This document shows positions 6,108 through 42,583 of a DNA stretch of 64,000 nucleotides, one piece after another. Each line of letters opens with the position of its first letter. Positions within the stretch are counted from its first letter, which is position 1. The position numbers and the translations under genes are program-made. The stretch comes from Verrucomicrobiia bacterium (lineage in GTDB: Bacteria > Verrucomicrobiota > Verrucomicrobiia > Limisphaerales > UBA8199), in NCBI GenBank assembly GCA_035946615.1, contig DASYZB010000010.1:5235-69234 (forward strand), in the 5' to 3' direction. A model generated the notes under the pieces. It was not told where the DNA came from and did not search any database. It was given only the letters and a program-made list of their open reading frames with translations.

Positions 6108-6108
6108 T

Positions 6109-6333: not shown

Positions 6334-6394
6334 ACCCGAATATGCAGGAGTTCAAATGCCTTGAAAAGAGCCGCTCGCACGAAATAATCACGCC

Positions 6395-8257: not shown

Positions 8258-9054
8258 AGGCAATGCGAAAGGCATCGTTTGCCGGTCTTATCGGCAGCAT
8301 TCCGAATCGGCTGGCGCTGGCGGGCGGATGGATTGACCAGCCATTTGTCTCGCGGCACAACCCCACTCCACCGGGGTCAATGGTGGTGGTCTCGCTTGAA
8401 CCGACATTCCGTTTCATGGACCGCGCGGGGTGTGCCAGCGGGACCCGCGCGGTCGCCATGGCGCTCTGGAACGGACGGCTCCCCAATCGGCCCGCCGGGC
8501 AGCTTGTGCGCGAGTTGTACGCCGCTGAGAACAAGGGCATGGCGGAGCCCAGCGGTTCACAAGATATGATCGGGCTGATTTATCCGGGCATCAGCCGTCT
8601 CGATTACGATTGCGCCGTCGATGGCGGGGTGTTTCCGCGCCGGATTGAATCGCTGGCGAGTTGGCGCGTTGCGCGCTGGCTCGAGCGCGTGTTGTATGTG
8701 CTCCCGATTGAGCCACGCCCTGCGGGTTACAATCCACTTGGCGTGAAGCGCCTCGATCCTAAATGGATCGCGCGGCTGGGCCAGACTGGGAAACACTGCT
8801 TTGAGGCGATACGCTCTGGTGACGCAGGGGCTCTGGGGGCATCGATGAATGAATGCATGGTCTGTTGGCAGAAAATCCTTCCGCACACGGTGCGACATCC
8901 CTCGATTAAAATCGATTTGGAGCGAATCCTTGCTTTTTATCAACGGCACTATTGCGGCGCGATGTACTCAGGCTGCGGAGGCGGCTATCTCCTCGTCATT
9001 TCGAACAAGTCGGTGCCCGGCGGTTTCCAGGTACGGGTCCGAACCAAGAGATGA
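8254..9054 (+). CDS. Divergent GHMP-like sugar kinase family protein
   Basis: The start overlaps the murQ stop as ATGA. A GHMP motif-II-like PSGSQDMIG and a motif-III-like YSGCGGGYLLVIS are present. The family assignment is tentative. Confidence 0.5.
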   Translation: MKAMRKASFAGLIGSIPNRLALAGGWIDQPFVSRHNPTPPGSMVVVSLEPTFRFMDRAGCASGTRAVAMALWNGRLPNRPAGQLVRELYAAENKGMAEPSGSQDMIGLIYPGISRLDYDCAVDGGVFPRRIESLASWRVARWLERVLYVLPIEPRPAGYNPLGVKRLDPKWIARLGQTGKHCFEAIRSGDAGALGASMNECMVCWQKILPHTVRHPSIKIDLERILAFYQRHYCGAMYSGCGGGYLLVISNKSVPGGFQVRVRTKR

Positions 9055-16679: not shown

Positions 16680-16772
16680 AAAGCTTCTGAATTCTTCTGG
16701 ACCAATTTCGCGGGCCAGAATAGCTTCATGCCCGAATGCAGCCGTTCCCAGAAATCCTTCAGGTGACCATAT

Positions 16773-18098
16773 ATGAAAACAAACCGTTCCTGCTCTCGCC
16801 GCTCGTTTCTTAAGCAAACCGCAATTGCTGGAGTAGCGCCGTTGCTTCTGCCCTCCCGCATCTGGGCCGCGGATGCAGGTCCCAACAGCCAAATTACTCT
16901 GGGTTTCATTGGTATGGGCACTCAGAACCGGGGTTTGCTGGGCGGCTTTCTGAGGCACAACGGCGTGCGCGTCCTGGCCGTGTGCGATGTGGACACCGAC
17001 CGCCGTGAAAACGCCAAGGGCATCGCCGACAAATTCTACGCCCAATCTGCAGGCAATGATTCGGCCAAGAGCTGCGCCATGCATGGCGATTTCCGCGAGT
17101 TGGTCGCCCGTCAGGACCTTGATGGTATCGTCATTGCCACGCCGGACCATTGGCATGCGCTGACGGCTATTGCGGCCGCCCGCGCCGGCAAAGACATCTA
17201 TTGCGAAAAGCCGATGAGCCACACCATCCGCGAAGGCCGGGCCATGGTCAACGCCGTGCGCAAGAACAACCGCGTCTTTCAGGTCGGCAGCATGCAGCGC
17301 TCCTCACACGAGTTCCGCGCCGCATGCGAGTTGGTGCGCAACGAATGCATCGGCAAAGTCATGCGCGTCGATGTCGCGGTCGGCGGTCCGCCTGTTCCCT
17401 GTGATTTGCCCGCCGAACCCGATCAACCCGGGTTGGATTGGAGCTTCTGGCTGGGAGCCGCGCCCATGCGGCCTTACAACTCGGTCCTCAGCCCGCGCGG
17501 CGTTCACAAACACTTCCCCGAGTGGCGCCATTACCGCGAGTATGGTGGCGGGGGTGTCTGCGATTGGGGCGCTCATCACCTCGATATCGCCCATTGGGCG
17601 CTCGGGTTCGACAACACCGGGCCGGTGGAAATCGTGCCGCCCAAAGACCCCAATGCGCAGAGCGGCGTGCGTCTCCTGTATGCCAACGGAGTGGAAATCA
17701 CCCATCGCAGCGGCAACGGAGTCACCTTTTACGGCGATAAAGGAAAAATCTACGTGAACAGGGGCAAATTCGAGCTTTGGCTTGGAGACGAGCAAAAGGC
17801 CAAAGAGGTTGGCGAATGCAAGCAAATGCTGCAGGACCTCTTGCCGGCCAATGCGGTCCGGCTCTATAACAGTTATGATCACCTGGGCGATTGGCTGCGT
17901 TCGATGCACACGCGCAAACCGCCTATTTGTGATGTGGAAATTGGGCAGCGATCCGCCACGGCCTGCAATCTCATTAACCTGGCGTATTTCCACGGAAAGA
18001 TTCTGAGATGGGACCCGGCGACCGAGCAATTCAGTGGGGGCACAGGCGATCCGCAGTGGCTCACACGCGAGTACCGCGCGCCTTGGAAGCTGGCTTGA
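16773..18098 (+). CDS. Gfo/Idh/MocA family oxidoreductase with a TAT signal
   Basis: The twin-arginine leader SRRSFLKQTAIAG is followed by a Rossmann N-domain (LGFIGMGTQNRG). Confidence 0.85.
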   Translation: MKTNRSCSRRSFLKQTAIAGVAPLLLPSRIWAADAGPNSQITLGFIGMGTQNRGLLGGFLRHNGVRVLAVCDVDTDRRENAKGIADKFYAQSAGNDSAKSCAMHGDFRELVARQDLDGIVIATPDHWHALTAIAAARAGKDIYCEKPMSHTIREGRAMVNAVRKNNRVFQVGSMQRSSHEFRAACELVRNECIGKVMRVDVAVGGPPVPCDLPAEPDQPGLDWSFWLGAAPMRPYNSVLSPRGVHKHFPEWRHYREYGGGGVCDWGAHHLDIAHWALGFDNTGPVEIVPPKDPNAQSGVRLLYANGVEITHRSGNGVTFYGDKGKIYVNRGKFELWLGDEQKAKEVGECKQMLQDLLPANAVRLYNSYDHLGDWLRSMHTRKPPICDVEIGQRSATACNLINLAYFHGKILRWDPATEQFSGGTGDPQWLTREYRAPWKLA

Positions 18099-31329: not shown

Positions 31330-31357
31330 ATTGAACATAACATACATTGTGCGAAGC
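31330..31357 (-). other. dif: dif-like XerC/XerD recombination site
   Basis: The minus strand reads GCTTCGCACAA-TGTATG-TTATGTTCAAT. A hand alignment to the E. coli dif core gives 23/28 identities (8/11, 5/6, 10/11). Confidence 0.7.
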
Positions 31358-31395
31358 CGCCTCAATTTCAAATTCATTCGCTTACATCAATCCAA

Positions 31396-32262
31396 ATGAG
31401 CAAACCAAACCTCATCCAATTTGGGACTGCCGTGGGCTTTTACCGCAATCCCCGAGTCCGCGAACTCTATGACCGGCTCAAAAAAGAGATACCGAGGAAG
31501 GTAGATTTTGCCGAGTTGGCGCCGATGCTTTTTCAGGTGGTTATGTCCGCTGCTGCCGAGAACCAGATCGACGGTGACTTTGCAAGCTACAACGCCAACC
31601 GCTGGTGCGAGATTTTCCTGGCGAACCATGTGCAAGTAACGCTCAAGGAAGCTTCGCTGATCCGGGTTTTGTTTAAAGACATCGGCTTATTCGAGGGGGA
31701 CAAAATCCGTTCCTGGGCCAAGTTCAACCGGCACCTGGCCGACTACGAGGGTATCGTCAAAGCTAAGAGACGAGCAGGCAAACTTTCGGCAAAGAGGCGC
31801 GAACAAGACGCCCGATCAGCCCTCAAAGGAGGTCGAAAAAACGACGAAATTTCCGCTTCGGAACCCGAAAAAAGCGCTTCCGAAAATGGTTCTGCGAGCA
31901 AGCAACTTTGGCTCATCGAAAAGGGTCTGGAAAAGGCCAAAGGCAAAGCCCGCCGGGAGCTGCTGGTCAAGAAGGAACGTCTCCTGAGCGGTGAGCTTGG
32001 CGTTGACCTCTCCGAGCCAGCGCCGGCAGCTCGCCCGCCGGCGCCCAAGGCGCAAAAGGAAACTCCGGGCGGATGGCAGCGGACGCTGCTCAGCTCTGCG
32101 CGGCAACTGCTGGCCGATTCACCGGAGCTGCTCACCGAGAAGATGGTTATCGCCCTGGCCAACGCGCGCGCCAAATTCCCGGAGGACGTTTACCAGAGAT
32201 TTCGCAAGGTCCTTGACGGCCTTGCCGAAAAAGAAGCCGGAGACAATCCCGTCCCCGGCTAA
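31396..32262 (+). CDS. Hypothetical protein, possibly replisome-organizer/DnaD-like (288 aa)
   Basis: The N-terminal ~130 aa end in LIRVLFKDIGLFEGDKIRSWAKFNRH, which resembles the winged-helix end of phage replisome-organizer N-domains. A Lys/Arg/Glu-rich linker and a helical C-terminus follow. Confidence 0.45.
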   Translation: MSKPNLIQFGTAVGFYRNPRVRELYDRLKKEIPRKVDFAELAPMLFQVVMSAAAENQIDGDFASYNANRWCEIFLANHVQVTLKEASLIRVLFKDIGLFEGDKIRSWAKFNRHLADYEGIVKAKRRAGKLSAKRREQDARSALKGGRKNDEISASEPEKSASENGSASKQLWLIEKGLEKAKGKARRELLVKKERLLSGELGVDLSEPAPAARPPAPKAQKETPGGWQRTLLSSARQLLADSPELLTEKMVIALANARAKFPEDVYQRFRKVLDGLAEKEAGDNPVPG

Positions 32263-32286
32263 ATATCAGAACCGAAAGGAAGCATC

Positions 32287-32562
32287 ATGCAAAAACCAGA
32301 ACCTGTCACGGAGGAAGTTATCCGCGAGGACCTCAGCGTCAATTCCGACGATGGAGGCGAGCCTGCCGTTGCGCGTGGCATCAGCAAGACGCCGCTGATC
32401 AACCGCGAGCATGTCCGGGCCCTGCTGCTGGACCTGGCCAAGGCCCGGGCGCACAAATATACGCGAGTCAGCGAAGAAACGCTGCTCACCGTCAACGAAA
32501 TCGTCCGGGCCCATTGCGTGTATCACGTAGGGCGATTCCCATCGAAAGGCAAAACGCTATGA
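32287..32562 (+). CDS. Hypothetical protein (91 aa)
   Basis: Normal composition. Its stop overlaps the next start as ATGA. Confidence 0.55.
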   Translation: MQKPEPVTEEVIREDLSVNSDDGGEPAVARGISKTPLINREHVRALLLDLAKARAHKYTRVSEETLLTVNEIVRAHCVYHVGRFPSKGKTL

Positions 32563-32951
32563 GCGACTACGAACCCTCGGCGGCCACCGTGCTCGACTGG
32601 CTGCACTCAAATTTAGGCGGAGCCGCCCTTGCTCCGCTGACGGGCAGCGACACTCACGCGCTGCGGGCAGCGGTGCAAATCATGGAGCAATATGCCTACG
32701 ACCGGCACCCGGGACTGCTCAATGCGTTTGCTGAGGTGGTCGGGCGGATGCAACCAAAGACGCGGGAGCTAGCTTACCACGCAATCGCCCACCCTCTCGA
32801 CTGGAGCGACCGTGCACGGGTATGGGCCGAGGCCGGACTGGGAACACCGGTTTTTTTTCAACCGCGCATGAAGTGCTCATTCGAGCCGGGCGGCTCTCGC
32901 ATCGATCACCTGGAGCTAGAGCAGAAAGAAGGTGAGGCGGAGAGCTTATGA
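32559..32951 (+). CDS. Hypothetical protein (130 aa)
   Basis: The internal ATG at 32559 overlaps the upstream stop (ATGA), and the downstream junction is also ATGA. Confidence 0.55.
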   Translation: MSDYEPSAATVLDWLHSNLGGAALAPLTGSDTHALRAAVQIMEQYAYDRHPGLLNAFAEVVGRMQPKTRELAYHAIAHPLDWSDRARVWAEAGLGTPVFFQPRMKCSFEPGGSRIDHLELEQKEGEAESL

Positions 32952-33124
32952 TTTCCGATTTTGAATTCTTCGAGAACGCGGAACGCATCAAGCAGCTTGA
33001 GGCTCTTCAAAAGGAGCTTCTTGAAAAGAAGATGGCCCGGCTCAAAGCCCAGATACAGAAGCTTTGCCAGGATTCTGCGGAACGGAAGGCCCAGGACAGG
33101 TTAAAGAGAAAGGAGCAAAAATGA
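32948..33124 (+). CDS. Hypothetical coiled-coil protein (58 aa; below the track cut-off)
   Basis: My own translation is MISDFEFFENAERIKQLEALQKELLEKKMARLKAQIQKLCQDSAERKAQDRLKRKEQK. Both junctions are ATGA overlaps. Confidence 0.45.
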   Translation: MISDFEFFENAERIKQLEALQKELLEKKMARLKAQIQKLCQDSAERKAQDRLKRKEQK

Positions 33125-33333
33125 AAGCAACAAAAAGACCGAGGCTGAGTTCTGCTCAACCTCGGTTAGGAGCGCGATTGGAACTCGCGCTAACAACAGG
33201 CGGGTGGTGGTGCCACGATTGTCAGAGTCACACCGAGCGCATTGAGAGCGAGCAGGGTGAGCCTGCAAGTTGCGCCGGATGCGGCTCTCACCGAATCGAA
33301 TACCAACCGCCGATCACATCAGCAACTCTATGA
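33121..33333 (+). CDS. Small zinc-ribbon protein (70 aa)
   Basis: CHDC...CAGC forms a CxxC-x19-CxxC arrangement. Both ends have ATGA junctions. Confidence 0.5.
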   Translation: MKATKRPRLSSAQPRLGARLELALTTGGWWCHDCQSHTERIESEQGEPASCAGCGSHRIEYQPPITSATL

Positions 33334-33569
33334 CCAAAGAAATTTTAATCCAGATAATTCCCGATGAGCGGACGCGGTTTCTGTGCTCTGACCACGAGCT
33401 GATGGACAGCCTGGCTTCGGCCATAAAACCAATGGTGAAGGGCTGCCTCAAGGTTTGGACCACAGGGCCAATCCCGGAAATCAAGATCGTGCCAAAGGGC
33501 GAAATGAGCGCCGGCGAAACAGTGCGGAGCGCGCTGGACGATCCGAGTGATGTTCCGCCCTGGCGATGA
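33330..33569 (+). CDS. Hypothetical protein (79 aa)
   Basis: ATGA-coupled at both ends. Confidence 0.5.
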   Translation: MTKEILIQIIPDERTRFLCSDHELMDSLASAIKPMVKGCLKVWTTGPIPEIKIVPKGEMSAGETVRSALDDPSDVPPWR

Positions 33570-33757
33570 GTGCCGAGGACGCACTGCGGTTCCTCGACCA
33601 CGAGTCCGGCTATTGCCGCTGCCACGATCAGCACGAAGCTTTGTGCCTGCTCTTGCCGGGCCTGCTCCGGGTCCTGGACCTCGAGCCGATGAACAGTTAC
33701 GAGGCTGAGAAATTCCGCAGCGAATTCCGCAAGGCGCTCAGGGAGGCCAAATGTTGA
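33566..33757 (+). CDS. Hypothetical protein (63 aa)
   Basis: The start is ATGA-coupled. Confidence 0.45.
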   Translation: MSAEDALRFLDHESGYCRCHDQHEALCLLLPGLLRVLDLEPMNSYEAEKFRSEFRKALREAKC

Positions 33758-33936
33758 AAGACTACCTTTGGTTCGGTCTGGCCTATCTGGCAACGCTGCT
33801 GCTGTTCGCGGCCGCCTTTGGGGGAGGCTGCTGCGTTGGCCGCTGGTCCAAGGAACTGGAAGAGCTGCGCAAGCTTCCGCCTTGGCCAGGACGAAAGGAG
33901 CATCGCGCTGAAAACTACACTGAGCGAATTGGTTGA
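33751..33936 (+). CDS. Small membrane protein (61 aa)
   Basis: One hydrophobic helix (WFGLAYLATLLLFAAAFGGG). It overlaps the previous gene by 7 nt. Confidence 0.45.
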   Translation: MLKDYLWFGLAYLATLLLFAAAFGGGCCVGRWSKELEELRKLPPWPGRKEHRAENYTERIG

Positions 33937-33964
33937 AAGCTCCGAGCAATTGCCCGGCGCTTTG

Positions 33965-34198
33965 ATGATGCAGGTTTGTCTCGAGGACGAGCTCGGAGCC
34001 GACCTGGCGCTGCCGCTGGCGAAGAAGGCGAGCACGACGGCTGAACGGATGCGGCGCTACCGTGCCCGTAAAATCCTTTACCGGCATCTTCTGCGGGCGC
34101 GCTCTCTGGGCTTGCCCATCTCTGACGCCATCCAGCTTTTGCATGCTGCCTGGCAAAACAAGCCTCCCCAAAAATGCCCTCCCCGATTCTCAGCGTAA
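33965..34198 (+). CDS. Hypothetical protein, or an upstream relic of the MTase pseudogene
   Basis: It lies in the same frame as the MTase remnant and is separated from it only by a TAA at 34196-34198. It ends in KPPQKCPPRFSA, which loosely resembles the PCQxFS catalytic motif. Confidence 0.3.
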   Translation: MMQVCLEDELGADLALPLAKKASTTAERMRRYRARKILYRHLLRARSLGLPISDAIQLLHAAWQNKPPQKCPPRFSA

Positions 34199-34477
34199 CG
34201 CAGATCGGCGTTACGGCCCTGGCTCGATGAGTCACAACCTGAGCCAAGCTGGTTCCTGCTCGAGAACGTGCCCGGGGTTCCGGACATTCACATTTCGGGC
34301 TACCAGGTCCAGCGGTTCAACTTGTTCGCCCATGAGTTTGGTTTAAGACAAAGCCGCAACCGCTCGTTCCAGTTTGGCAGCCGTGACGGCCGTCCACTTC
34401 AGCGGAATTGCCGTCCAATCGAGCCTGGCCAAAAAGGCTTGAAAAAGGAAGGCGCTAGTAGGAAAGTTGCACCATGA
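34199..34477 (+). pseudogene. DNA (cytosine-5)-methyltransferase remnant (ENV and QxRxR motifs only)
   Basis: The reading is PSWFLLENVPGV...FGLRQSRNRSFQFG. Motif I, the target-recognition domain and motifs IX/X are absent. Confidence 0.6.
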
Positions 34478-34734
34478 GCGCCACAGTTTTACGCGAAAAG
34501 CGCCAGACCACCCTGCCGGTCGAGGTGGTTGAAGCAGCCGGCCTGAAACCAAACGACCAAGTGGACTGGCGTTTCCAGGACGGCGAGATACGCGGACGGA
34601 AGCTCGAGCCGGTCAGGCCCATCCCCAGGCTTAAACCGCTCCGAGTAAAGGGCCGGCTGCGCCCTCCTGATGGCTTCAAGCCATCCCGCCAGATCATTGC
34701 GGCCGCCGTTCGCGCAGACCGGGACGATAGATGA
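34474..34734 (+). CDS. vapB: AbrB/SpoVT-type antitoxin (VapB-like)
   Basis: KRQTTLPVEVVEAAGLKPNDQVDW is a swapped-hairpin AbrB motif. It overlaps the PIN gene as ATGA. Confidence 0.75.
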   Translation: MSATVLREKRQTTLPVEVVEAAGLKPNDQVDWRFQDGEIRGRKLEPVRPIPRLKPLRVKGRLRPPDGFKPSRQIIAAAVRADRDDR

Positions 34735-35126
34735 GGCGTTACTGGGACAGCTCCGCGTTGCTGGACGCCTTTTTCGAGTCCAGGATTGAGTCCTTAGTCC
34801 GGGAACCGGACCAATGGACAAGGCCCCACACCCTTGCTGAGATGTTTTCGGCCCTTACGGGGGGACGGTTAGGCGGACAATTCCATCCAGCCGACGCGTC
34901 CGCCATCGTCCGCGAGTTGACGGAGACCATGAATTTTGTCGAGCTGGACGCCAAAGAGGTTCAAGCGGCACTGGATTCGGCGGACAAGCACGGCGTCCGG
35001 GGAGGGAACGTCCATGATTGGATGCACGCCACGGCTGCAAAGAAAGCCGGCGCTATCGTCCTGCTAACCGACAATTCCACGGACTTCCAGAATTTGGCGG
35101 ACGGATTCGCCGTCGAGGCTCCTTAA
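34731..35126 (+). CDS. vapC: PIN-domain toxin (VapC-like)
   Basis: Acidic residues are in PIN positions (YWDSSAL, AEMF, LLTDNSTDF). It has the classic two-gene arrangement. Confidence 0.8.
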   Translation: MRRYWDSSALLDAFFESRIESLVREPDQWTRPHTLAEMFSALTGGRLGGQFHPADASAIVRELTETMNFVELDAKEVQAALDSADKHGVRGGNVHDWMHATAAKKAGAIVLLTDNSTDFQNLADGFAVEAP

Positions 35127-35749
35127 AACAGTTTCCCGGACAGTTTTGTCCGGGTTAGGCGATTCCAGGACAGGAAACTCCCCAAGGGCAATCCCTGGAC
35201 AGCCTCCGCATCGGCCCCCAATCGCCGGACACAAGCCAATTCCTTGGGTTCATCAAGGCGGAAACAGACCAGTTCGGTGGACTGTCCGGTAATGGAGGCA
35301 TTAATCAAACTCGGACTCTGAGTGGCGGAGACAAGCTCCGTGTCCTCTTCACGGCCAAGGCGGACAAGCCTGTCCAGCTCTCGGGGAATGTCCTCGCGGT
35401 CCTGCCATTGCCAGATTTCGTCCACCAATACCAGTTTCTTGCCCGGACCGCGTTGGGACGCTGCATACACCCAATCGCAGAAAAACCGGAAAGCGGCTTT
35501 GTAGTCGCCATCCGGGAACATCCGGGCAGGATTAAAGATGACCCATCTCGAGGCCAGCGCCGCCTCGAGTTCGGCGGACGTGTAGCATGGACGGAGATTG
35601 AGCCGGGTGGCAGCCCGGCCCAGGTCATCGAACAAGAACCGGCAGGCAGCCGGCGCGTTCAGCAGGTAGCGATAGGCAAAGGTGGATTTCCCGCTGCCGG
35701 ACATGCCGACAATCAGCGTGTTGGCCAGCTCGAGGGTGTAATCGGCCAT
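35123..35749 (-). CDS. Small P-loop NTPase, FtsK/HerA/VirB4-like (possible virion packaging/morphogenesis ATPase)
   Basis: Walker A GMSGSGKST and Walker B LVLVDEIW are followed by RLGREEDTELVSATQSP. It is 208 aa with no TM helix. Confidence 0.65.
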   Translation of the reverse strand: MADYTLELANTLIVGMSGSGKSTFAYRYLLNAPAACRFLFDDLGRAATRLNLRPCYTSAELEAALASRWVIFNPARMFPDGDYKAAFRFFCDWVYAASQRGPGKKLVLVDEIWQWQDREDIPRELDRLVRLGREEDTELVSATQSPSLINASITGQSTELVCFRLDEPKELACVRRLGADAEAVQGLPLGSFLSWNRLTRTKLSGKLF

Positions 35750-35813
35750 CTGCTCAATGAGTCACACCCTGGTTCAGCCGGTCCAAGGGCCAGAAGGAGC
35801 AAGGTGTAGTGCA

Positions 35814-36263
35814 TTATTTTTCTTTCTCTTTCTGTGGTTCTTGTTTTGGAGGAGGCTGGAGATTCTGCAAAGCAATCAGCTTATCGAGCCGGCGCAAGAG
35901 CTTGACGTGGTGTCCGCCGATGAGCGCCAGCGAGCTGACCAGGACAGCCACGTCTTTATACTCGGGACTGATGCCAGTCGCGTTGAGCAGTTTGGCCGCC
36001 ACACGCGGCGCTGAAATCTCGAGGCCGCGCTTGCCCACAGTCGGCCATTTAGCCGAATCCTGGATTTCCTGGACGATCTCTCCGGGCAGCCTGGCCTTTT
36101 CCGCACGGCTGCTAACCTGTAGGGCCATTCCCTCTTCCAACGCCGGGATCAACTGTTCGCAGATCGGTTTGAGTTCCTCCGGGTCCCAAGGTACAGGCGG
36201 AGGACTTTGAGGAAAAGCCACACCGCCCGCACCAACAGGCGCCGCTTGAGGCGAGTTAGCCAC
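35814..36263 (-). CDS. Hypothetical protein (149 aa, GTG start), upstream of the ATPase
   Basis: Pro-rich N-terminus, helical core and a Lys/Glu/Pro tail. It is co-oriented with the ATPase. Confidence 0.5.
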   Translation of the reverse strand: MANSPQAAPVGAGGVAFPQSPPPVPWDPEELKPICEQLIPALEEGMALQVSSRAEKARLPGEIVQEIQDSAKWPTVGKRGLEISAPRVAAKLLNATGISPEYKDVAVLVSSLALIGGHHVKLLRRLDKLIALQNLQPPPKQEPQKEKEK

Positions 36264-36457
36264 AGCCGCGGCGCTCGGCAGTGGCGGAGGTTCTGGGGAA
36301 CGCTGCTTGCGCTTGCGCTGCGCATCTTTCTTCCGGTCGGCTTCGATGGCCTCGGGTGATCCTGGGACAAGGCCGTCCAGGCGTTTGCGTCCGCCTCGCA
36401 GGCCTCCATGCTTTGTAGCTGCTTCGCCAGCAGAAAGCGGAGCGGAAAAAACTCGAA

Positions 36458-37036
36458 GTGAGTTTGTATTGCAACGGGATTTACATTACGAACAATCCCA
36501 CTTGGGCGGTTCAAATCTTCAACACGGGCGACACCACGCCGCCCCGTTTCAAAATCGCCAGCAATGGGTCCGCCTCGCAGCACTTTTGGCAGTTTCAAAA
36601 GGACCTGGAAAGCAACGGGAGTCAGTTTGAGTTCTACTCGAGCACCAATGGGGGCAGCAACGTGAACCTCACTCTGACGCTTGACCCATTCAGCGGCAAT
36701 GAAAATCTGGTGTTCGGAAAGTACGTCGGCAACCTGGCCGGGGCCACAAATGTAAGCTCTACGGTGCTTGCCAGCTCGGCCGATGTGGCTCTTAAGGGCT
36801 TCGAGGAATACGTCTTCCTGGCCGGCAACCATACTTGCACCCTCGGCAGCGCTGCCACCAACGCGGGACATTCGGTCTCGATCACCTGCACCAGCGCCGG
36901 CACGAATGCGATTCTGCCTATTTTGAGCCAAACGATCACCGGTGCCAGCAAGTGGACTAACGGAGCCATTTACACCGTCACCAAGCTCATCAGCGACGGG
37001 TCCAACTGGCAGATAGCCGGCTCTCGAGGAAACTGA
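36458..37036 (+). CDS. Beta-rich Ser/Thr/Asn/Gly-rich structural-type protein (192 aa, GTG start)
   Basis: No helices are evident. The C-terminus TKLISDGSNWQIAG is reminiscent of phage fibre/adsorption protein ends. Confidence 0.5.
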   Translation: MSLYCNGIYITNNPTWAVQIFNTGDTTPPRFKIASNGSASQHFWQFQKDLESNGSQFEFYSSTNGGSNVNLTLTLDPFSGNENLVFGKYVGNLAGATNVSSTVLASSADVALKGFEEYVFLAGNHTCTLGSAATNAGHSVSITCTSAGTNAILPILSQTITGASKWTNGAIYTVTKLISDGSNWQIAGSRGN

Positions 37037-37038
37037 TT

Positions 37039-37461
37039 ATGGCCTGGTTCGGACTCGATAAACTTTTTTTGGGGTACGACCTGACTGCCCAGCAGCAGCA
37101 GAGCAACGCCCTCGACGCGCAGATCAACAACGTCAACCAGGCGCTGCAAACGGCCGGTTACGTCCCGCCAGGCTATGCCGAACAGGCCGCTGCCGACATT
37201 GCGGCGGGGGACAACAGCACGGGCGCGGGCGACGTGGTTCAAAGCGTGGATTCCGAATTCGTGGCCGGGGCTAAGCAGGGCCTTGACAACGTGCTGACCG
37301 CGCCCGGCAAAGTCGTTGGGGCAGTCGGTTCGGGGGCCTCGACTCTCTTAGGCGGCATAATCAAAGCAATTCCCTGGTGGGTCTGGCTCGGAGCCGCCGC
37401 GGCCCTGTTCGTCTGGATGGGCGGCCTCGAGCTGCTGAAAGGAAGGTTCGCGCGAAAATGA
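37039..37461 (+). CDS. Gly/Ala-rich protein with a C-terminal TM helix and basic tail (140 aa)
   Basis: The C-terminus reads ...AIPWWVWLGAAAALFVWMGGLELLKGRFARK. Confidence 0.55.
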   Translation: MAWFGLDKLFLGYDLTAQQQQSNALDAQINNVNQALQTAGYVPPGYAEQAAADIAAGDNSTGAGDVVQSVDSEFVAGAKQGLDNVLTAPGKVVGAVGSGASTLLGGIIKAIPWWVWLGAAAALFVWMGGLELLKGRFARK

Positions 37462-37649
37462 CTCAGCAAGACTCTTTACGCCTTGTGCTTGTCCGCATCG
37501 AAACAAAGGTCGATCTGCTTATAGCTAATGACGGCGACAAGGAGAAGCGAATCCGCAAGCTTGAACGCCGCGACGGCATCGTGGCCGGTGCTTCCGGCAT
37601 CGCAGCAATTTTGTCCCCAATCGTTTGGAAAAAGTTATTCGGTTTATGA
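37458..37649 (+). CDS. XhlA-like architecture: short coiled coil plus a C-terminal TM helix (63 aa)
   Basis: RIETKVDLL...KRIRKLERRDGIVAGASGIAAILSPIVWKKLFGL. Both ends have ATGA junctions. Confidence 0.5.
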   Translation: MTQQDSLRLVLVRIETKVDLLIANDGDKEKRIRKLERRDGIVAGASGIAAILSPIVWKKLFGL

Positions 37650-38212
37650 TAGAAACAGCAATACCAGCGCCGGCTGCTCCGGCAATCAACGCGCCGGCCG
37701 TCCAGGCCGCAGCCAAGGACCTCGTGGATACTGCCACGCTGGTTAAATCAATCCTCACGGCCTACAAACAAGGCGGCGCCGCAGCGGCCGCTGGCCAGCT
37801 CCCCGCCGCCGTGAGCCAGATCGCCACGGATATAAAGGACGCGGAGGCTGCCCTGCCCTCGATCAAAAGCGGCTACGCTACCACGGAATTCTGGCTCACT
37901 GCCGGCGTCGTGGTTCTCAACGGCGTTTATCCGCTGGTCACCGGCAAGCAACTCCCATTCGATGCCAATATCGTGATGGGCGCTGCCGTGGCCATCTACA
38001 CGGCAGCTCGAGGCCTTCAAAACCAAAGCCGCATGAAACGGTTATGCTTTTTGACTGGACTCTGCTTGCTGCTTAGCGGCTGCAAAGTGGTTGAGCGCAT
38101 CGCTACTGCCCCGCTGGGCCTGGCCATGGGGGTTTATTGGGGCGCTCACGACAGATCGCCCGGAGTTGAAAGGCCTCCCAATACCAACAGCTTTTCTGCA
38201 TTGCCCCATTGA
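37646..38212 (+). CDS. Two-TM holin-like membrane protein (188 aa) with an in-frame lipoprotein-type start near its 3' end
   Basis: The TM segments are TTEFWLTAGVVVLNGVYPLV and IVMGAAVAIYTAARGL. Confidence 0.5.
   Translation: MIETAIPAPAAPAINAPAVQAAAKDLVDTATLVKSILTAYKQGGAAAAAGQLPAAVSQIATDIKDAEAALPSIKSGYATTEFWLTAGVVVLNGVYPLVTGKQLPFDANIVMGAAVAIYTAARGLQNQSRMKRLCFLTGLCLLLSGCKVVERIATAPLGLAMGVYWGAHDRSPGVERPPNTNSFSALPH
38033..38212 (+). CDS. Possible internally initiated small lipoprotein (59 aa)
   Basis: An in-frame ATG gives MKRLCFLTGLCLLLSGC, a lipobox-type signal peptide. Confidence 0.3.
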   Translation: MKRLCFLTGLCLLLSGCKVVERIATAPLGLAMGVYWGAHDRSPGVERPPNTNSFSALPH

Positions 38213-38216
38213 ACCA

Positions 38217-38426
38217 ATGCTCACTGGCTTTCTATCTCTGGCGGGCGCGTTGCTCTCCATCCTCTTTTGGGAGATGAAACGGCGCGCCGCCAAGGTGGAC
38301 GATCCGAGAAATGAAAATCAAAATGCACGCGACCAAAACCGGCAGGCGATTGCCAATGGTTCTGCTGGCGATCTGCTTGACCGCCGGCTTAACCGGCTGT
38401 CTCCACCCGCAGGTCAAGGTCATTGA
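38217..38426 (+). CDS. Small N-terminal-TM protein (69 aa), i-spanin-like position
   Basis: MLTGFLSLAGALLSILFW is followed by a charged tail. The next lipoprotein gene starts inside it in another frame. Confidence 0.45.
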   Translation: MLTGFLSLAGALLSILFWEMKRRAAKVDDPRNENQNARDQNRQAIANGSAGDLLDRRLNRLSPPAGQGH

Positions 38427-38571
38427 CCCAACGACAACCGTTCAGCGGCTCCCAAGAGGAACCAACGTAACGGCCTGCGTGGATGGCTATTTTGTGCCTG
38501 ATGCGACCATGCTTCGGATTCTCGATCACCTCGGGGAGCTGGATGTCTTCGGCACAAACCAAACAAAGTAA
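38311..38571 (+). CDS. Small lipoprotein (86 aa), o-spanin-like overlapped arrangement
   Basis: The signal peptide with lipobox reads LLAICLTAGLTGC. The start is embedded out of frame in 38217..38426. Confidence 0.55.
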   Translation: MKIKMHATKTGRRLPMVLLAICLTAGLTGCLHPQVKVIDPTTTVQRLPRGTNVTACVDGYFVPDATMLRILDHLGELDVFGTNQTK

Positions 38572-38577
38572 AAAAAT

Positions 38578-38958
38578 ATGAGCGAAACCCAAACTTCAAC
38601 GCCGCCGCCTGCACTGGCGCCAGGCCAGCCCGTCCCCATCAGCCCCGGCAAGATTCCCGAGAGTATAGCGGCAATCCGCGTCCTTTCTGATCCGATGCAG
38701 CTGCTCGAGAAAGAGGCTGACGACCTTTTGGCTCAGAATGCCGCTCTGCAAATCGAGAACAGCACGCTTAAGAACCAGGTTGAACAGCTTACCGCCTTGG
38801 TCCAAAAGAAACCGGCGGCCGCTGGCTTCTTGCCAGCCACTGAAGCAGAGCTGCGCGCGCTGGTGAACGGCTTGGAGAAGAAAGCGCTGCCTTGGGGTTA
38901 CCGAGCGGGCAAACTGCTCTCTGAGCTGGTCAACGAACGCTGGTTGCTCAGGCGATGA
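38578..38958 (+). CDS. Coiled-coil protein (126 aa)
   Basis: Heptad-like LLEKEADDLLAQNAALQIENSTLKNQVEQLTALV. Confidence 0.55.
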   Translation: MSETQTSTPPPALAPGQPVPISPGKIPESIAAIRVLSDPMQLLEKEADDLLAQNAALQIENSTLKNQVEQLTALVQKKPAAAGFLPATEAELRALVNGLEKKALPWGYRAGKLLSELVNERWLLRR

Positions 38959-39095
38959 GCTTTCTACGCTCAGCACTGAGCCTGGTTACTCAGGCCGTTA
39001 AGGACCTGTTCTCGGGCAAGATTAACGCCCTCGGGCTTGCCATGCTGGCTCTGGCGGGCTTTGTCGGTTGGTGGCTCTGGAAGAAGCTCAAATGA
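38955..39095 (+). CDS. 46-aa single-TM protein with a basic C-terminus (coat-protein-like; below the track cut-off)
   Basis: My own translation is MSFLRSALSLVTQAVKDLFSGKINALGLAMLALAGFVGWWLWKKLK. Both ends have ATGA junctions. Confidence 0.45.
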   Translation: MSFLRSALSLVTQAVKDLFSGKINALGLAMLALAGFVGWWLWKKLK

Positions 39096-39253
39096 ACCAA
39101 CGCCAAGCCACCGCTTCGATCATCATGCTGGTGCTCATCCTGCTGGGCATGGCCGGCCTCTATTACGGCCTCTGGAAGGCTTACCAGCTTTACCAGCAAT
39201 ACCAGGCACAATACCAAAAAGGCGGAATCCTCGGTCTGCTAGGTGGAAAATGA
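39092..39253 (+). CDS. 53-aa single-TM protein
   Basis: MNQRQATASIIMLVLILLGMAGLYYGLWKAYQLYQQYQAQYQKGGILGLLGGK. The start is ATGA-coupled. Confidence 0.45.
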   Translation: MNQRQATASIIMLVLILLGMAGLYYGLWKAYQLYQQYQAQYQKGGILGLLGGK

Positions 39254-39635
39254 AGTCCAAATTGCGCAAAGCCAACAGGTCCAAACGGCGTCCTGGGCGG
39301 TCACGGCGGGGAACGGCCATGATAAGCGTCCGGTTCCGGGAGCCCTTGAGGTTTCTCAAAACCCTGTTGCATTAAAGCTGCCTTGCGTCCTGCCGGTCTC
39401 CGCCGCCGATGCCCTTGCCTGGGCCGAAGGCCGGCTGGATGATCTGGACCTTGTGCTGAATGCCAAATTGCGCCCGGAAGCCGTCTTTGTCGTGAACCTT
39501 CCCAACCTTCGCTCTTACCGTCAAACGCTGCGCCTAGTGGCCAATTGGCGCGAGCGCGGGGCAGTCTGCATGATAGCCCGAACCGGAAGCGATCTGGTGG
39601 AAGACGGTCACTGCGAAATTCATAGGGCTTCGTGA
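39243..39635 (+). CDS. Hypothetical protein (130 aa, GTG start); competes with a 41-aa Arg/Lys-rich ORF at 39250..39375
   Basis: The C-terminal two thirds have a normal protein-like composition. The true start is unclear. Confidence 0.3.
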   Translation: MENEVQIAQSQQVQTASWAVTAGNGHDKRPVPGALEVSQNPVALKLPCVLPVSAADALAWAEGRLDDLDLVLNAKLRPEAVFVVNLPNLRSYRQTLRLVANWRERGAVCMIARTGSDLVEDGHCEIHRAS

Positions 39636-39754
39636 GTTCCACGGGCTACACGGTCCGAATCCTCGAATATGACATCGAGGACGGCGGAGCGGCCGCAGGT
39701 CGGCGGACAAGGCGTCGGCCAGCGTCGGGCCCATGCGCAAAAAGGGTTGCCAAG

Positions 39755-39769
39755 GCACCTAAAAGGTGC
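39755..39769. promoter_or_regulatory. Palindrome GCACCT-AAA-AGGTGC upstream of the RHH antitoxin gene (candidate operator)
   Basis: A perfect 6-3-6 inverted repeat lies 12 nt before the ATG at 39781. Confidence 0.4.
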
Positions 39770-39780
39770 AAATTGAACCC

Positions 39781-40023
39781 ATGAAGCGTTCAGTTGACTT
39801 GGATGAAGACCTTGCCGCTGAGGTGGAAAAAGCGGCGGAGCTGGTCAGGGAAAAGCCGGCTACTGTAATTCGGCTTGCTATCCGTGCCGGGCTGCCAAGC
39901 GTTACGAGCCGATTCCAAGCTCCAAGGCCTGAGGGCTATTTCGCGGACGCTTACAAGGACGCTGCCCGGGCCGAGAGTGAGAACAAGATGCTATCTGCTC
40001 TGATCCAGAAACCGGAGCGATGA
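39781..40023 (+). CDS. Ribbon-helix-helix (CopG-like) antitoxin
   Basis: MKRSVDLDEDLAAEVEKAAELVREKPATVIRLAIRAGL. It overlaps the toxin gene as ATGA. Confidence 0.6.
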   Translation: MKRSVDLDEDLAAEVEKAAELVREKPATVIRLAIRAGLPSVTSRFQAPRPEGYFADAYKDAARAESENKMLSALIQKPER

Positions 40024-40346
40024 GGATTTGGCAATGGGAAATCTGGAAAGCGAAGGTTCCAGGATTCGCCGTTGATCATTGGTTTGTCCTGCTGAGCGGA
40101 CAGGAGCGGCTCGATAACCCGAAGCATCAGGCCTGCAATGGTCTAATCTGTTACACGCTGCGAGGACCGCCAATTTCCACAGATGTCCGGCTTGACGCGG
40201 CGGACGGGTTTAGAGCCGCTACCGCTTGCCAATGCGACTTTCTTTGGGTGCTTGATAAGCGGACGCTGCACAGCCAAACTGGGACGGTTTCCTGGGAGCG
40301 CCAGCAACAAATCCGCAGTAAAGTCCGCGAAATCTTGCGTCTTTAA
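40020..40346 (+). CDS. MazF/PemK-like toxin
   Basis: 108 aa. WEIWKAKVPG...HWFVLLS...CQCDFLWVLDKRTL..TGTVS matches the family's strand pattern and its position after an RHH gene. Confidence 0.55.
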   Translation: MRIWQWEIWKAKVPGFAVDHWFVLLSGQERLDNPKHQACNGLICYTLRGPPISTDVRLDAADGFRAATACQCDFLWVLDKRTLHSQTGTVSWERQQQIRSKVREILRL

Positions 40347-40380
40347 AACATCATTGGGACCCGTGTGAACGCGCTGCTCG

Positions 40381-40869
40381 TCATTGGCTCAATCCATTTG
40401 TTGTTTGTTGTTTGCCGTGACCGCCTTCACGCTGGCTCAGGATCCGCCACCCATGTGTACCATACATTATTTTCAGAACCCTGATCGGGTCGGCGTTCGG
40501 AGAGTAGTCCTCTCCCCAAATAGCTAAAGTAGAATAGCGCCAGTTTCCACCGATGTACTTGATGCCAACGGTGCCTTTATCCAGAACGATCTCGTATGGT
40601 CTCTTCCCAGCCAAAGCAAACTCGCCTAGAATGTTGGTATCGGCGATAGACTCCTCCCCTGCCCCAGGGCCGCCCCGTTGCCGCATCAGACGATCACACC
40701 GGGATGCGAACTGATCCAACTCGCTGCGTGGAAGGGCTTCAACTGCGTCACAGAAAGCGCGACTTTTGGCGACCCGGTACCGAAGAACCCAAAATGGCAG
40801 GGCGACCACCAGGAGCAAAGCCCCGATTAGGAGGAAAACAACCCACGCCCGTGTCGTCATAGCTCCCAC
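40381..40869 (-). CDS. Hypothetical membrane-anchored protein (162 aa)
   Basis: N-terminal TM helix AWVVFLLIGALLLVVALPFWVL. I recognise no family. Confidence 0.5.
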   Translation of the reverse strand: MGAMTTRAWVVFLLIGALLLVVALPFWVLRYRVAKSRAFCDAVEALPRSELDQFASRCDRLMRQRGGPGAGEESIADTNILGEFALAGKRPYEIVLDKGTVGIKYIGGNWRYSTLAIWGEDYSPNADPIRVLKIMYGTHGWRILSQREGGHGKQQTTNGLSQ

Positions 40870-40940
40870 CGCTGCCCGGTACCCTGGCTGAGTGATTGAG
40901 GCATATGTTGAGTGTCCTTCCGAAAGGGCTTGGGGAGCCT

Positions 40941-41065
40941 ATGATGCAGGCCGTTGGCCTGCAAACAGAATTATAGCCATTCGTACCCAGGACGTTGGCC
41001 CTGGGCCGGTATGAGGGACGCCTTTGGCGTCCTGCGTCGCTACGCGACGCAACCTCGATTTGTTG
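40941..41065 (+). repeat. Hairpin-rich intergenic repeat, family B (copy 2)
   Basis: It contains AGGCCGTTGGCCT, CCCAGG..CCTGGG and GGTATGAGGGACGCCTTTGGCGTCC. Confidence 0.6.
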
Positions 41066-41338
41066 GCTCTTCTTCCGTAGGCCGAGGCCCACAGCCACCG
41101 GCATGGCACCGCTACGCGGTGCGAGGCGCCGGCACAACTTCCTTTTGCATCAGGTCCGTCGCCAGCGAAGGGCAAAAAAATTGACACCATTCTCCTCATC
41201 CTCGATTTTCCAGGGGCTTCGAGGACGAGGACGAAAGGAAGAGCCGACTATTTTCAAAACACGCCCTAAAGGTCCCTAAAGGTCCGCACAACCCACAATT
41301 TCCATTTGCACTGGAGAGATTACTGAGGCAAACTTAAA

Positions 41339-41353
41339 TGCAAATGATTTGCA
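41339..41353. promoter_or_regulatory. Perfect 7-1-7 palindrome TGCAAATGATTTGCA, candidate Zur/Fur-family operator
   Basis: It lies 10 nt upstream of the ZIP transporter start. The operon also encodes the Fur-family regulator. Confidence 0.6.
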
Positions 41354-41362
41354 ATTGAGCGC

Positions 41363-42118
41363 ATGATAACCCCTGTTTTAATCCGCATCTTTGCGGCCTT
41401 TGCCATTGCGCTGGCGGGCGGGGCGTTCAGCGCGTTGCTGGCGCGGACGCACAAGCAGCTTTGCGCCTTTATCAGTCTGGGGGCGGGGACGTTATTGGGG
41501 GTTGCGGTCTGCGGGATCGCCCCGGAATGCCTGGAGGCCTTGAGTTGGTGGCAATTTGTCCTGGGGGTTGGGTCGGGTTATGTCCTGTTCGCCGTGGTGA
41601 GCAAATACATTTTTCATATCTGCCCGGCATGCGCGGCCAGTCATTTCGATGATGTAACGACGCATCATCTGGCGGAGTTCGCGCTGGCGATGATGATAGC
41701 GCTGGCGATTCATTGCACGGTGGATGGATTGGCGCTGGCGGTGGGCCACGAAGAGAGCGAGGCGGTTGATTTGTCTGTCACCTTTGCCATTTGCGTGCAT
41801 AAGTTTCCGGAGGGCCTGGCGCTGGGGGCGCTGCTGCTGGGGGGCGGATTTCGGCGAGCCAGGATGCTGTGGCTGGTGACAGCGGTGGAGTCCACAACGA
41901 TTTTGGGCGGGTTGCTGGGGTGGTTTGCCCTGCACGATGTGTCGAATATGTGGCTGGCGCTTGCGCTGGCAAATGCGGGTGGCGGATTTCTTTATCTTGC
42001 GCTGCATGCGGTGCTGGGCGAGATTTTCAAGCACCATAAGGGACTGGTGCTGGGGAGTTTTGCCAGTGGTTTCAGCGCGATTGCCGCGTTGATTCTGTAT
42101 TTTCATTTAAAGGCCTAA
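41363..42118 (+). CDS. ZIP-family zinc/metal transporter
   Basis: Eight hydrophobic segments and the signature HKFPEGLALG. Confidence 0.85.
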   Translation: MITPVLIRIFAAFAIALAGGAFSALLARTHKQLCAFISLGAGTLLGVAVCGIAPECLEALSWWQFVLGVGSGYVLFAVVSKYIFHICPACAASHFDDVTTHHLAEFALAMMIALAIHCTVDGLALAVGHEESEAVDLSVTFAICVHKFPEGLALGALLLGGGFRRARMLWLVTAVESTTILGGLLGWFALHDVSNMWLALALANAGGGFLYLALHAVLGEIFKHHKGLVLGSFASGFSAIAALILYFHLKA

Positions 42119-42583
42119 ATGCCCAAATTGGAATCACCACGTCATTTCGATATGCCACGGACAAAGACCATGTCGGCCTTGACGGAGCGCCTGCGGCGTC
42201 ACGCGCGGAAGATCACCGGGCCGCGCAAGGCGGTTCTGGAGATTCTGCGAAAGCACTCGCATCCACTGACAAACCGGGAGGTGCTGGTCGCCCTGCCCCG
42301 CGGGCAATGCGATTTGGCCACAGTTTACCGGGCGATGCACGTGCTCGAGGGGATAGGGATGGTGAAGCGCTTTGATTTTGGGGACGGCGTCGCTCGATTC
42401 GAGCTGATTGGCGACGGCGGGGACGGGCATCATCATCACTTGATTTGCACCCACTGCGCGCGAGTAGTTGAGATCGAGGAATGTTTTTCAGGGTTGATGG
42501 AAAAGCGGATTGCGGCCAAAAACGGTTTCAAAGGGGTGACGCACCGGCTGGAGTTTTTTGGGATTTGCCGGGAGTGCCAGTGA
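42119..42583 (+). CDS. zur: Fur-family metalloregulator (probably Zur)
   Basis: Winged helix (ATVYRAMHVLEGIGMV), HHHH, CTHC...CREC. It starts at the nucleotide after the ZIP stop. Confidence 0.75.
   Translation: MPKLESPRHFDMPRTKTMSALTERLRRHARKITGPRKAVLEILRKHSHPLTNREVLVALPRGQCDLATVYRAMHVLEGIGMVKRFDFGDGVARFELIGDGGDGHHHHLICTHCARVVEIEECFSGLMEKRIAAKNGFKGVTHRLEFFGICRECQ

Follow-up and report, generated by a model that had tools for sequence, protein, structure and literature searches.

A capsid-less prophage remnant beside a dif-type site in Verrucomicrobia: a PM2-like tailless phage family, some members of which probably integrate with host XerC/XerD

The stretch analyzed here, referred to as the window, comprises 64,000 nucleotides of a Verrucomicrobiia bacterium (GenBank assembly GCA_035946615.1, contig DASYZB010000010.1, positions 5,235 to 69,234 of the forward strand), and contains an island of short genes that abuts a dif-type site. 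In our reading, to which we give a probability of roughly 0.6, the island (31330-41297) is a defective dif-type prophage of a PM2-like phage of Verrucomicrobia, from a lineage that has no integrase of its own and uses the XerC and XerD of the host. A sequence-only reading of the same DNA had described the island as a self-contained replicon of ORFans and as a candidate IMEX (an integrative mobile element that exploits Xer). The replicon part of this description has to be replaced: the island is a deletion derivative of a PM2-like prophage without capsid gene, and several of its genes have homologues in related elements.

Results

A family of PM2-like phages

The small P-loop ATPase that had been recognized in the island is better named a packaging ATPase of the FtsK/HerA type. 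It matches PHROG 2666 ("terminase large subunit") with an E-value of 7e-24 and, weakly, FtsK/HerA/VirB4 profiles, and the profile of its family aligns with P9 of PM2 at 98% probability (hhalign, E 1.8e-13). An early idea that the island stems from a filamentous phage was discarded because the ATPase matched the packaging enzyme of tailless phages. The protein has its full length (100%), and the nearest relative is 81% identical to it. Its 306 homologues (60-81% identity, nearly all of about 207 aa) come from metagenomes and from Verrucomicrobiota or Opitutales metagenome-assembled genomes (MAGs); a scan of genome contigs yielded only two MAG contigs with the gene. No family member was found by tblastn among 50,697 phage records of GenBank, nor in IMG/VR scans with the window ATPase and with a consensus, in which the alignment patterns were saturated.

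The contigs around eleven ATPase homologues (contigs and loci are designated by L numbers) have one common architecture. An early operon, often a DNA methylase gene, and a toxin-antitoxin pair convergent with the ATPase gene are followed by one to a few genes upstream of the ATPase and a divergent promoter; then come, in most relatives, a gene for 36-37 aa, a gene for a protein of 292-333 aa, genes for small membrane proteins, one for a large hypervariable protein, and further small genes. The 292-333-aa proteins of L002, L022, L023, L024 and L028 pass the Pfam thresholds for P2_N and/or P2_C, which represent the two jelly rolls of the capsid protein in PM2. The gene order is shared with the window, where g1, g3, g5, g7, g13, g15, g21, g22, g24 and the methylase (Table 1) have homologues in the relatives. 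Intact relatives measure 14-16.4 kb with the same layout, the window copy about 10 kb.

Taken together, the similarity of the ATPase to PM2 P9, the P2_N/P2_C capsid proteins of the relatives and the PM2-like local gene order identify the family as PM2-like Vinavirales, predicted to be tailless, to contain an internal membrane and to build a double jelly-roll capsid. An intact genome would be a circle that leads from the phage attachment site (attP) through the gene for g1 or a DnaB-like helicase, the small early genes, in several relatives a DNA methylase gene, and a toxin-antitoxin pair to the ATPase on the opposite strand, and from there through the divergent promoter, the 36-aa gene and the capsid gene, the membrane proteins and the variable spike, late genes and an accessory locus back to attP.

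The window copy is defective

A hidden Markov model (HMM) built from the capsid proteins of five relatives finds the gene in three further relatives outside its building set, and a capsid gene is present in every relative whose sequence covers that region. The same HMM finds no capsid gene in the whole window (best E = 1). Therefore, the window copy is a remnant of such a virus and not a functional member. In the relatives, the space between the g13 homologue and the structural genes is filled by one to four genes, the divergent promoter and, in most of them, the 36-37-aa gene and the capsid gene; the gene order of L023 suggests that the stretch deleted from the window also held several small structural genes and the N-terminal part of the variable spike. 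On the one side of the scar, g13 has kept the reading frame of its conserved N-terminal coding part (36264-36413), yet lacks a start codon there, the only possible start being a GTG at 36263. On the other side, g14 lies just before the g15 homologue, which is the position of the gene for the large hypervariable spike or host-recognition protein in L023 and L028, and g14 is possibly the 3' remnant of a hypervariable spike gene. As a capsid protein g14 was rejected, since it resembles neither the capsid HMM nor the spikes of the relatives; its AlphaFold2 single-sequence model (predicted local distance difference test score, pLDDT, 37) was unusable. Further downstream, g15-g22 form a block of small membrane proteins like the one that follows the capsid gene in relatives, and have homologues in the relatives' structural operons; the homologues of g15, g21 and g22 stand at the end of these operons.

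The decayed C5-methyltransferase of the sequence-only reading proved to be what it had seemed: window positions 34232-34390 correspond to residues 10-62 of a 229-aa methylase of a relative, and the methylase homologue of L024 has 336 aa (Pfam DNA_methylase, E 5e-23). Because the capsid gene with its neighbours, the g13 start and most of the C5-methylase have been lost, the window copy is a defective prophage that makes no virions on its own. An internal deletion of about 4-6 kb after integration would have removed the capsid gene and its neighbours, and the methylase would have been truncated as well; two toxin-antitoxin modules would then have kept the remainder in place, together with the left end, which forms the only recognizable dif of the window.

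Other remnants of the family were seen in passing. In L016 (positions 1-8700; ENA ERZ19032358 scaffold_206), two more relics lie beside one family prophage, each reduced to the 3' end of an ATPase gene and a PIN toxin; an antitoxin gene accompanies one of them, and a common, conserved stretch of 94 nt lies upstream of both. The locus gives the impression that elements integrated there repeatedly and were then deleted until the addiction module was left. A repeat in L016, D4, briefly appeared dif-like, and is the promoter and start of an antitoxin gene. On a 321-kb contig (L015, positions 5786-7193; ENA ERZ25039540), a chromosomal relic consisting of ATPase and VapBC only lies between ispH (LYTB) and a CitMHS transporter gene. 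The capsid gene of L018 (7125-8448) is split over several frames, which probably reflects sequencing errors and not decay, as the contig carries a name that points to a long-read assembly.

A dif-type site at the left edge

On the + strand, the site at the left edge reads ATTGAACATAA (31330-31340), CATACA (31341-31346) and TTGTGCGAAGC (31347-31357). Its reverse complement, GCTTCGCACAA TGTATG TTATGTTCAAT, shows the XerC-type arm, the 6-bp centre and the XerD-type arm, the XerC arm being the one that faces the island. The site is identical to E. coli dif at 23 of 28 positions. Predicted dif sites of three Verrucomicrobia are given in a supplementary table of Kono et al. (2011; PMC3025954), namely ACTTCGCACAATATATGTTATGTAAAAT for Methylacidiphilum infernorum, ACTTCGCATAATATATGTAATGCCAAAT for Akkermansia muciniphila and GCTCCGCATCATGCATGTGATGCGAACA for Opitutus terrae; the window site agrees with them at 24, 21 and 18 of the 28 positions, respectively. 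A position weight matrix (PWM) from only these three sites gives it 34.3 bits and the runner-up position in the window 9.5 bits, and a degenerate pattern of the site matches once in the window, where shuffled sequences give an expectation of 0.00. The earlier observation of a dif-like site whose XerC arm touches the island is thereby borne out, as is the failure to see another one: no further dif-type site turned up in any part of the window, 40.3-41.3 kb included, when it was searched with E. coli dif, the window site itself, half-sites and two PWMs, one of them the verrucomicrobial matrix. Flanking direct repeats of the island were not found either. The stretch 31330-31357 is a dif-type site; as the terminus dif of the chromosome it is a candidate only. 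An exact look-up of the protein encoded by the adjoining FHA gene had a single result, a 2.7-kb contig with the same junction.

Sites of relatives and the presumed attP of the free form

The same kind of junction is found in relatives. In the prophage covered by L024, L025 and L026, a g1 homologue (46% identity) has the site AATTCGCACAA TGTTAG TTATATTCACT 77 nt upstream, oriented as in the window and followed by host DNA. In L004, where the early operon opens with a gene for a DnaB-like helicase, a weaker site, ATGTTGGACAA TGTTTG TTATATTTAAT, occupies the same place. The exact 9-mer TTCGCACAA had no other occurrence in the loci examined up to that point.

The g1 family comprises 52 proteins of about 285 aa, strikingly many of which are encoded on contigs of 14.9-16.5 kb. 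One such contig, L028 (14,345 of 16,449 nt readable, 2.1 kb unread), has no host gene and is circularly permuted, so that the structural operon leads through a 55-aa basic open reading frame (ORF) and a site to a g1 homologue (47% identical to window g1) and the early operon. The site, GGTTCGCACAA CAAACA TTGTGCGAATG, lies 35 nt upstream of the g1 homologue and consists of a perfect XerC-type arm beside g1, a 6-bp spacer and, in the position of the XerD arm, an inverted XerC-type arm; there is no XerD arm. Be the contig derived from a circle or from a tandem array, a site in this position is the presumed attP. The unread 2.1 kb fit the size of the missing ATPase and toxin-antitoxin pair.

In the integrated copies, the XerC arm next to g1 is kept, and the XerD-type arm lies outside the element and differs by host (TTATGTTCAAT, TTATATTCACT, TTATATTTAAT). 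As the free site has no XerD arm and the integrated forms have host-specific ones, the XerD arm is therefore acquired on integration. The site of an integrated copy is the hybrid that is expected from an exchange between attP and dif inside the spacer. A small basic ORF of the 55-aa type also occurs at the far border of the L024 prophage, where the sequence read stops, which agrees with an attP located between that ORF and g1.

A palindromic attP was also looked for in IMG/VR. It had five matches, a count near chance, none of them with a homologue of g1, the ATPase family or the capsid protein, and the one looked at in detail (L031) is a tailed-phage fragment; these matches were set aside. An unrelated "viral" contig of 76 kb (L027, IMGVR_UViG_3300032516_000014) has a dif site of the verrucomicrobial type, CTTTCGCACAA TGTTAG TTATGTTCACA, at 289-316, 290 nt from the start of the locus and with the same spacer as the L024 site. 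This may be another element at dif, or host flank within the provirus call.

The right junction

The distal attP half of L028 with its spacer (GGTTCGCACAACAAACA) has a single match with at most three mismatches in the window, GGTCCGCACAACCCACA at 41281-41297, on the expected strand and within the gap of 1 kb that separates g24/g25 from the ZIP gene. Shuffling gives 0.23 such matches per whole window and about 0.002 for this gap and strand. The similarity to L028 reaches about 35 nt leftward into the degenerate tail of the small ORF, and it ends at the edge of the spacer. As it stops there, the right end of the element is most likely, judged by this alignment, at 41297 and not at 40.37 kb, the limit of the earlier description, which had left the right end open within 40.35-41.3 kb. 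With this right end, g23/g24 and g25 become an accessory locus inside the element. Directly to the left of the candidate junction, at 41264-41283, CCCTAAAGGT is duplicated in tandem. The two ends of the window copy correspond to the two halves of the L028 site. The two junctions differ: the left one is a full hybrid dif, the right one consists of the attP half and spacer only, without the host XerC arm.

No recombinase in the island, integrases in some relatives

No integrase, resolvase, transposase or relaxase was found in 31.3-41.3 kb by Pfam, PHROG and NCBIfam scans of all plausible ORFs, alternative and antisense ones included. In the whole 64 kb, tblastn had no match with the tyrosine integrase of a relative or with E. 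coli XerD. Together with the negative fold search for g1 (see below), this upholds the earlier statement that the island encodes no such enzyme. Five relatives (L008, L013, L018, L022 and L023) encode tyrosine integrases, and these have no dif-type site at their early end. L022 is inserted in a tRNA-Arg(TCT) gene, about 46 nt of whose 3' end are repeated beside the integrase gene (161-206 and 16714-16791). The family holds two integration strategies, with members of integrase type and members of dif type.

g1, the gene beside attP

The g1 family always adjoins attP or a dif junction. No profile library names a family for g1, so that its earlier designation as "replisome-organizer-like" finds no profile support. 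An AlphaFold model (33 homologues in the alignment, mean pLDDT 78) shows a compact, helical N-terminal domain, winged-helix-like and with a small hairpin, followed by a disordered basic linker and helical segments only. Foldseek returned insignificant matches (E > 0.1), the best of them to winged-helix DNA-binding domains (Fur, ArsR) and to a phage "DnaA N-terminal domain" protein, and no recombinase fold in PDB or BFVD. With P15 of PM2, which is XafT-like, the hhalign probability is 0.2%. As a recombinase or XafT, g1 was rejected on the lack of a family match, of a fold match and of similarity to PM2 P15. Other relatives have a DnaB-like helicase in the slot of g1. This, and the constant place beside attP, fit a replication organizer, a regulator or a Xer accessory factor, any of which g1 may be.

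Gene content of the island

Positions 31396-40346 hold a run of short genes, mostly on the + strand (Table 1). Start and stop codons overlap in many places: of the 16 ATGA sites with open frames of at least 40 codons on both sides, about 12 are at junctions of gene models, in agreement with the at least 10 that had been counted before. The membrane-protein module noted earlier is real as well, with hydrophobic segments in g8, g15, g18, g20, g21 and g25. Among the early genes, g5 encodes a zinc-ribbon-like protein. Of the two toxin-antitoxin pairs that had been claimed, VapB/VapC is supported by Pfam and fills a slot with a toxin-antitoxin pair in most relatives examined; the second, g23/g24, is suggested by the about 30% identity of g24 to annotated relatives, g24 having no direct Pfam match. 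If the right junction is accepted, g25 is cargo within the element. Scans of the sequence found no tRNA gene or Rfam family.

Table 1. Features of the island and its junctions (window coordinates).
Feature	Position	Strand	Remarks
dif-type site, left junction	31330-31357	-	XerD-type arm 31330-31340, central hexamer 31341-31346, XerC-type arm 31347-31357
g1, first early gene, 288 aa	31396-32262	+	52 homologues, none with a Pfam domain
g2-g9, early operon of small genes	32287-34198	+	translation coupled via ATGA overlaps; g3, g5, g7 with homologues in related elements
C5 cytosine DNA methyltransferase remnant	34232-34390	+	about 53 codons left; about 230-336 in relatives
VapB-like antitoxin	34474-34734	+	Pfam MazE_antitoxin
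VapC PIN toxin	34731-35126	+	Pfam PIN
packaging ATPase, FtsK/HerA type, 208 aa	35123-35749	-	phrog_2666 E 7e-24; hhalign to PM2 P9
g13	35814-36413	-	homologue of a 203-251-aa protein upstream of the ATPase in relatives
deletion scar	36414-36457	.	44 bp between 5' end of g13 and start of g14; capsid region missing
g14, 192 aa, all-beta near-ORFan	36458-37036	+	one partial homologue only; slot of hypervariable spike gene
g15-g22, late or structural module	37039-39635	+	small proteins, many membrane-anchored; g15, g21, g22 with homologues in relatives
g23, of second toxin-antitoxin-like pair	39766-40023	+	partner of g24
g24, PemK/MazF-like	40020-40346	+	28-30% identical to relatives' proteins annotated PF02452 PemK_toxin
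g25, membrane-anchored, 162 aa	40381-40869	-	no named family
candidate right junction	41281-41297	+	GGTCCGCACAA (inverted XerC-type arm, distal attP half), then hexamer CCCACA

Some further observations concern single places in or near the island. A 20-nt direct repeat (18/20 identical) occurs at 34222-34241, at the start of the methylase remnant, and at 35752-35771, right upstream of the start codon of the ATPase gene; chance or a shared operator may account for it. In g17 (37646-38571), an internal Met is followed by a lipoprotein-type signal, MKRLCFLTGLCLLLSGC, and the gene overlaps an alternative ORF (38091-38426); the gene models are uncertain here, and there may be a frameshift. Outside the element, the palindrome AAATGCAAATGATTTGCAATT at 41337-41357 is probably a Zur/Fur box and lies just upstream of the gene for a ZIP transporter (41363-42118), which is followed by a Fur-family gene (42119-42583). 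Two non-coding stretches, window 40990-41130 and L024 14900-15350, are rich in short GC hairpins (GGACGCC-TTT-GGCGTCC, GCGTCGC-TAC-GCGACGC). These hairpins near element ends may be host intergenic repeats.

Discussion

Our data suggest a model for the entry of the element, which most likely borrowed XerC and XerD of the host. Host XerC/XerD would bring attP and the chromosomal dif together in a synapse, with strand exchange at the spacer. The result would be a complete dif at one junction (31330-31357), in which the XerD arm comes from the host and the XerC arm from the phage, and the other junction would keep the non-XerD arm of the phage (41281-41297); this far junction would have lost the host XerC arm, or would never have had it. 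The order of strand exchange, and any role of g1, belong to the conjectural part of the model. The proposal of an IMEX at dif, as made from the sequence alone, is strengthened by the same junction in three independent relatives, by the attP on the free form and by a break point at the edge of the attP spacer. It is weakened by the right junction.

Several observations weigh against this model. First, reciprocal exchange predicts a host XerC arm (approximately TTGTGCGAAGC) at the right junction, and after GGTCCGCACAA CCCACA the window has ATTTCCATTTG instead. Either the missing arm reflects later damage to a non-functional junction, which the CCCTAAAGGT duplication adjoins, or an incomplete dif was the target. 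Second, neither 31.3 nor 41.3 kb shows a sign change in GC skew, and no terminus signal comes from gene orientation; because both are uninformative, the site is no more than a candidate for the terminus dif. Third, an empty site was not found: in the metagenome scan, two relatives of the FHA gene (87% identity) have other neighbours on both sides, which are absent from the window, and as the surroundings of the FHA gene are not syntenic even at this identity, there was no empty site to evaluate. Fourth, the attP is known from a single contig, L028, whose circularity follows from gene order and not from overlapping ends, and which is a relative of the window's element (g1 47% identical), not that exact element. 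Finally, the L004 site is weak, with 8 mismatches, and the far junction of the L024 type lies just beyond the sequence read.

The alternative that survives best, although it is unlikely, is that the element was of the integrase type, with a tyrosine integrase of its own that targeted a dif-like sequence and was later deleted along with the capsid region. Deletions are demonstrable in the window copy and may have removed an integrase; in four of the five integrase-bearing relatives (L008, L018, L022 and L023), the integrase gene stands directly after the g22 homologue, where the window has the toxin-antitoxin pair and g25. In addition, tailless prophages that lie at dif in Vibrio frequently encode integrases themselves (PMC11630473). 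These points, too, count against an integrase-less lineage. However, no remnant of an integrase is detectable in the window, and the relatives with a dif-type site speak for a lineage without one: the 770 nt that follow the last structural gene of L024 contain no integrase, and L028 has none in the readable 14.3 of its 16.4 kb, the remaining 2.1 kb being needed for the ATPase and the toxin-antitoxin pair. The integrase-bearing relatives, in turn, have no dif-like site, and one of them is in a tRNA gene.

The incomplete right junction also allows a bolder version of the XerC/XerD model, which we consider somewhat less probable still. Because the reconstructed target has an XerD arm and spacer and no XerC arm, the host itself may no longer have a complete dif, and its sole functional dif would be the chimera of host XerD arm and phage XerC arm at 31330-31357. 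A phage family with a palindromic attP of two XerC arms, and with g1 as a new kind of Xer accessory factor, would then repair or replace dif on integration. If true, the chromosome would depend on the left end of the capsid-less remnant to resolve dimers, and the remnant would be retained for that reason.

The same reconstructed target (ATTGAACATAA CATACA ATTTCCATTTG, without XerC arm) can be taken to mean that the dif-like site is a multimer-resolution site of the element's own, similar to cer or psi, and that integration took place elsewhere by another or an illegitimate route. A Xer-like site on the free form and the absence of a GC-skew flip at the locus would agree with this. We regard it as improbable, since the XerD arm is lacking in the site of the free form, each of the three integrated forms has a XerD-type arm on the host side that differs between hosts, and the break point of the element is the spacer edge of its attP. 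Equally improbable is a satellite, similar to TLC-phi or RS1, that has dispensed with a capsid gene, keeps functions of replication, packaging ATPase, membrane proteins and attP, and is mobilized by intact relatives: IMEX satellites are known (PMC6744903), the early and late operons are open with intact coupled ATGA junctions, and the ATPase is well preserved, but the g13 start codon is gone, only a stump of the methylase remains, the right junction is incomplete, and no second copy with the same deletion was seen among the contigs examined.

Comparison with known systems

The nearest counterparts of a defective dif-type prophage that would have depended on host XerC/XerD are known from Vibrio, and the earlier statement that no such element was known in this kind of genome needs to be qualified accordingly. 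Tailless double jelly-roll (DJR) prophages of Vibrio come in an int type and a dif type, of which the dif type is classed as IMEXs (PMC12715192, PMC9966536), and Vinavirales prophages have been reported from Verrucomicrobia (PMC9502842). The attP of the Vibrio dif type is full-length or one-armed (17 bp), the end genes are P16/RstR and P15/XafT, and PM2 itself has a one-armed site (PMC12715192). Like these NO16-like phages ("Asemoviridae"; PMC9966536, PMC12715192), the present family consists of small tailless membrane phages with a PM2-type capsid, an FtsK/HerA ATPase and, in the dif-type lineage, no integrase; it has a dif-like attP, integration at the host dif would regenerate a full dif at one junction, there are int-type relatives that differ in the lysogeny module, and an accessory toxin-antitoxin or defence locus lies near one end. 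It differs in the host, which belongs to the Verrucomicrobia and not to the Gammaproteobacteria; in the end genes, which are g1 and the 55-aa basic ORF instead of P16/RstR and P15/XafT (DUF3653); in the attP, whose non-XerC arm is an inverted XerC arm; and in the ATPase gene, which is divergent from the capsid operon, the window copy having no capsid gene at all. Profile scans of the island found no DUF3653/XafT-like regulator and no repressor of an RstR-like or HTH family.

With PM2 of Pseudoalteromonas (Corticoviridae, Vinavirales), the family shares a homologous packaging ATPase and capsid proteins, those of the relatives passing Pfam P2_N and P2_C. PM2 has the order ATPase, 34-aa gene, capsid, small membrane proteins and spike, and the relatives likewise have a 36-37-aa gene before the capsid gene. 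Sequence identity is low, and where PM2 has the rolling-circle Rep P12, the present family has g1 or a DnaB-like helicase. TLC-phi of Vibrio cholerae is an IMEX whose attP has no XerD-binding arm (PMC6744903, PMC9226527). The attP described here similarly has a good XerC arm and spacer and no bona fide XerD arm, and in both cases a functional dif would be created or restored beside the element. TLC-phi is a filamentous satellite with XafT, whereas no XafT-like protein was detected here.

Closest in host are the Vinavirales prophages of Verrucomicrobia from gut and environmental metagenomes (clade A, "Mestraviridae"), which were described as extremely divergent and possibly degenerate, without P15/P16 homologues and without known lysins (PMC9502842). 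The eight genomes of that study, which we set beside the present family by their description, agree with it in host phylum, virus order and prophage state. Unlike for the present family, dif-type integration was not reported for them, and the main text contains neither "integrase" nor "XerC". In Flavobacterium, PhiCjT23-like prophages have 28-nt dif motifs on their flanks, and XerC/XerD-dependent integration has been proposed for them (PMC9719478). They, too, are small, tailless, membrane-containing phages that reside as prophages at dif, but they are ssDNA phages of 6-8 kb with a rolling-circle Rep, another capsid lineage and a dif motif at both ends.

Against this background, the exploitation of Xer by tailless phages would extend beyond Vibrio and Flavobacterium to Verrucomicrobia, to a large family of more than 300 ATPase variants with integrase-type and dif-type members that was not found among the IMG/VR or GenBank phage records searched. 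For annotation, this means that integrase-less "ORFan islands" beside dif in environmental MAGs may be recognizable as decayed tailless prophages by the small packaging ATPase alone. While the dif-type DJR prophage as an IMEX is known from Vibrio, the phylum, the form of the attP and the end genes are new here. The attP with two XerC arms, together with end genes unrelated to XafT and RstR, would represent a second, independent solution for XerCD recombination without FtsK.

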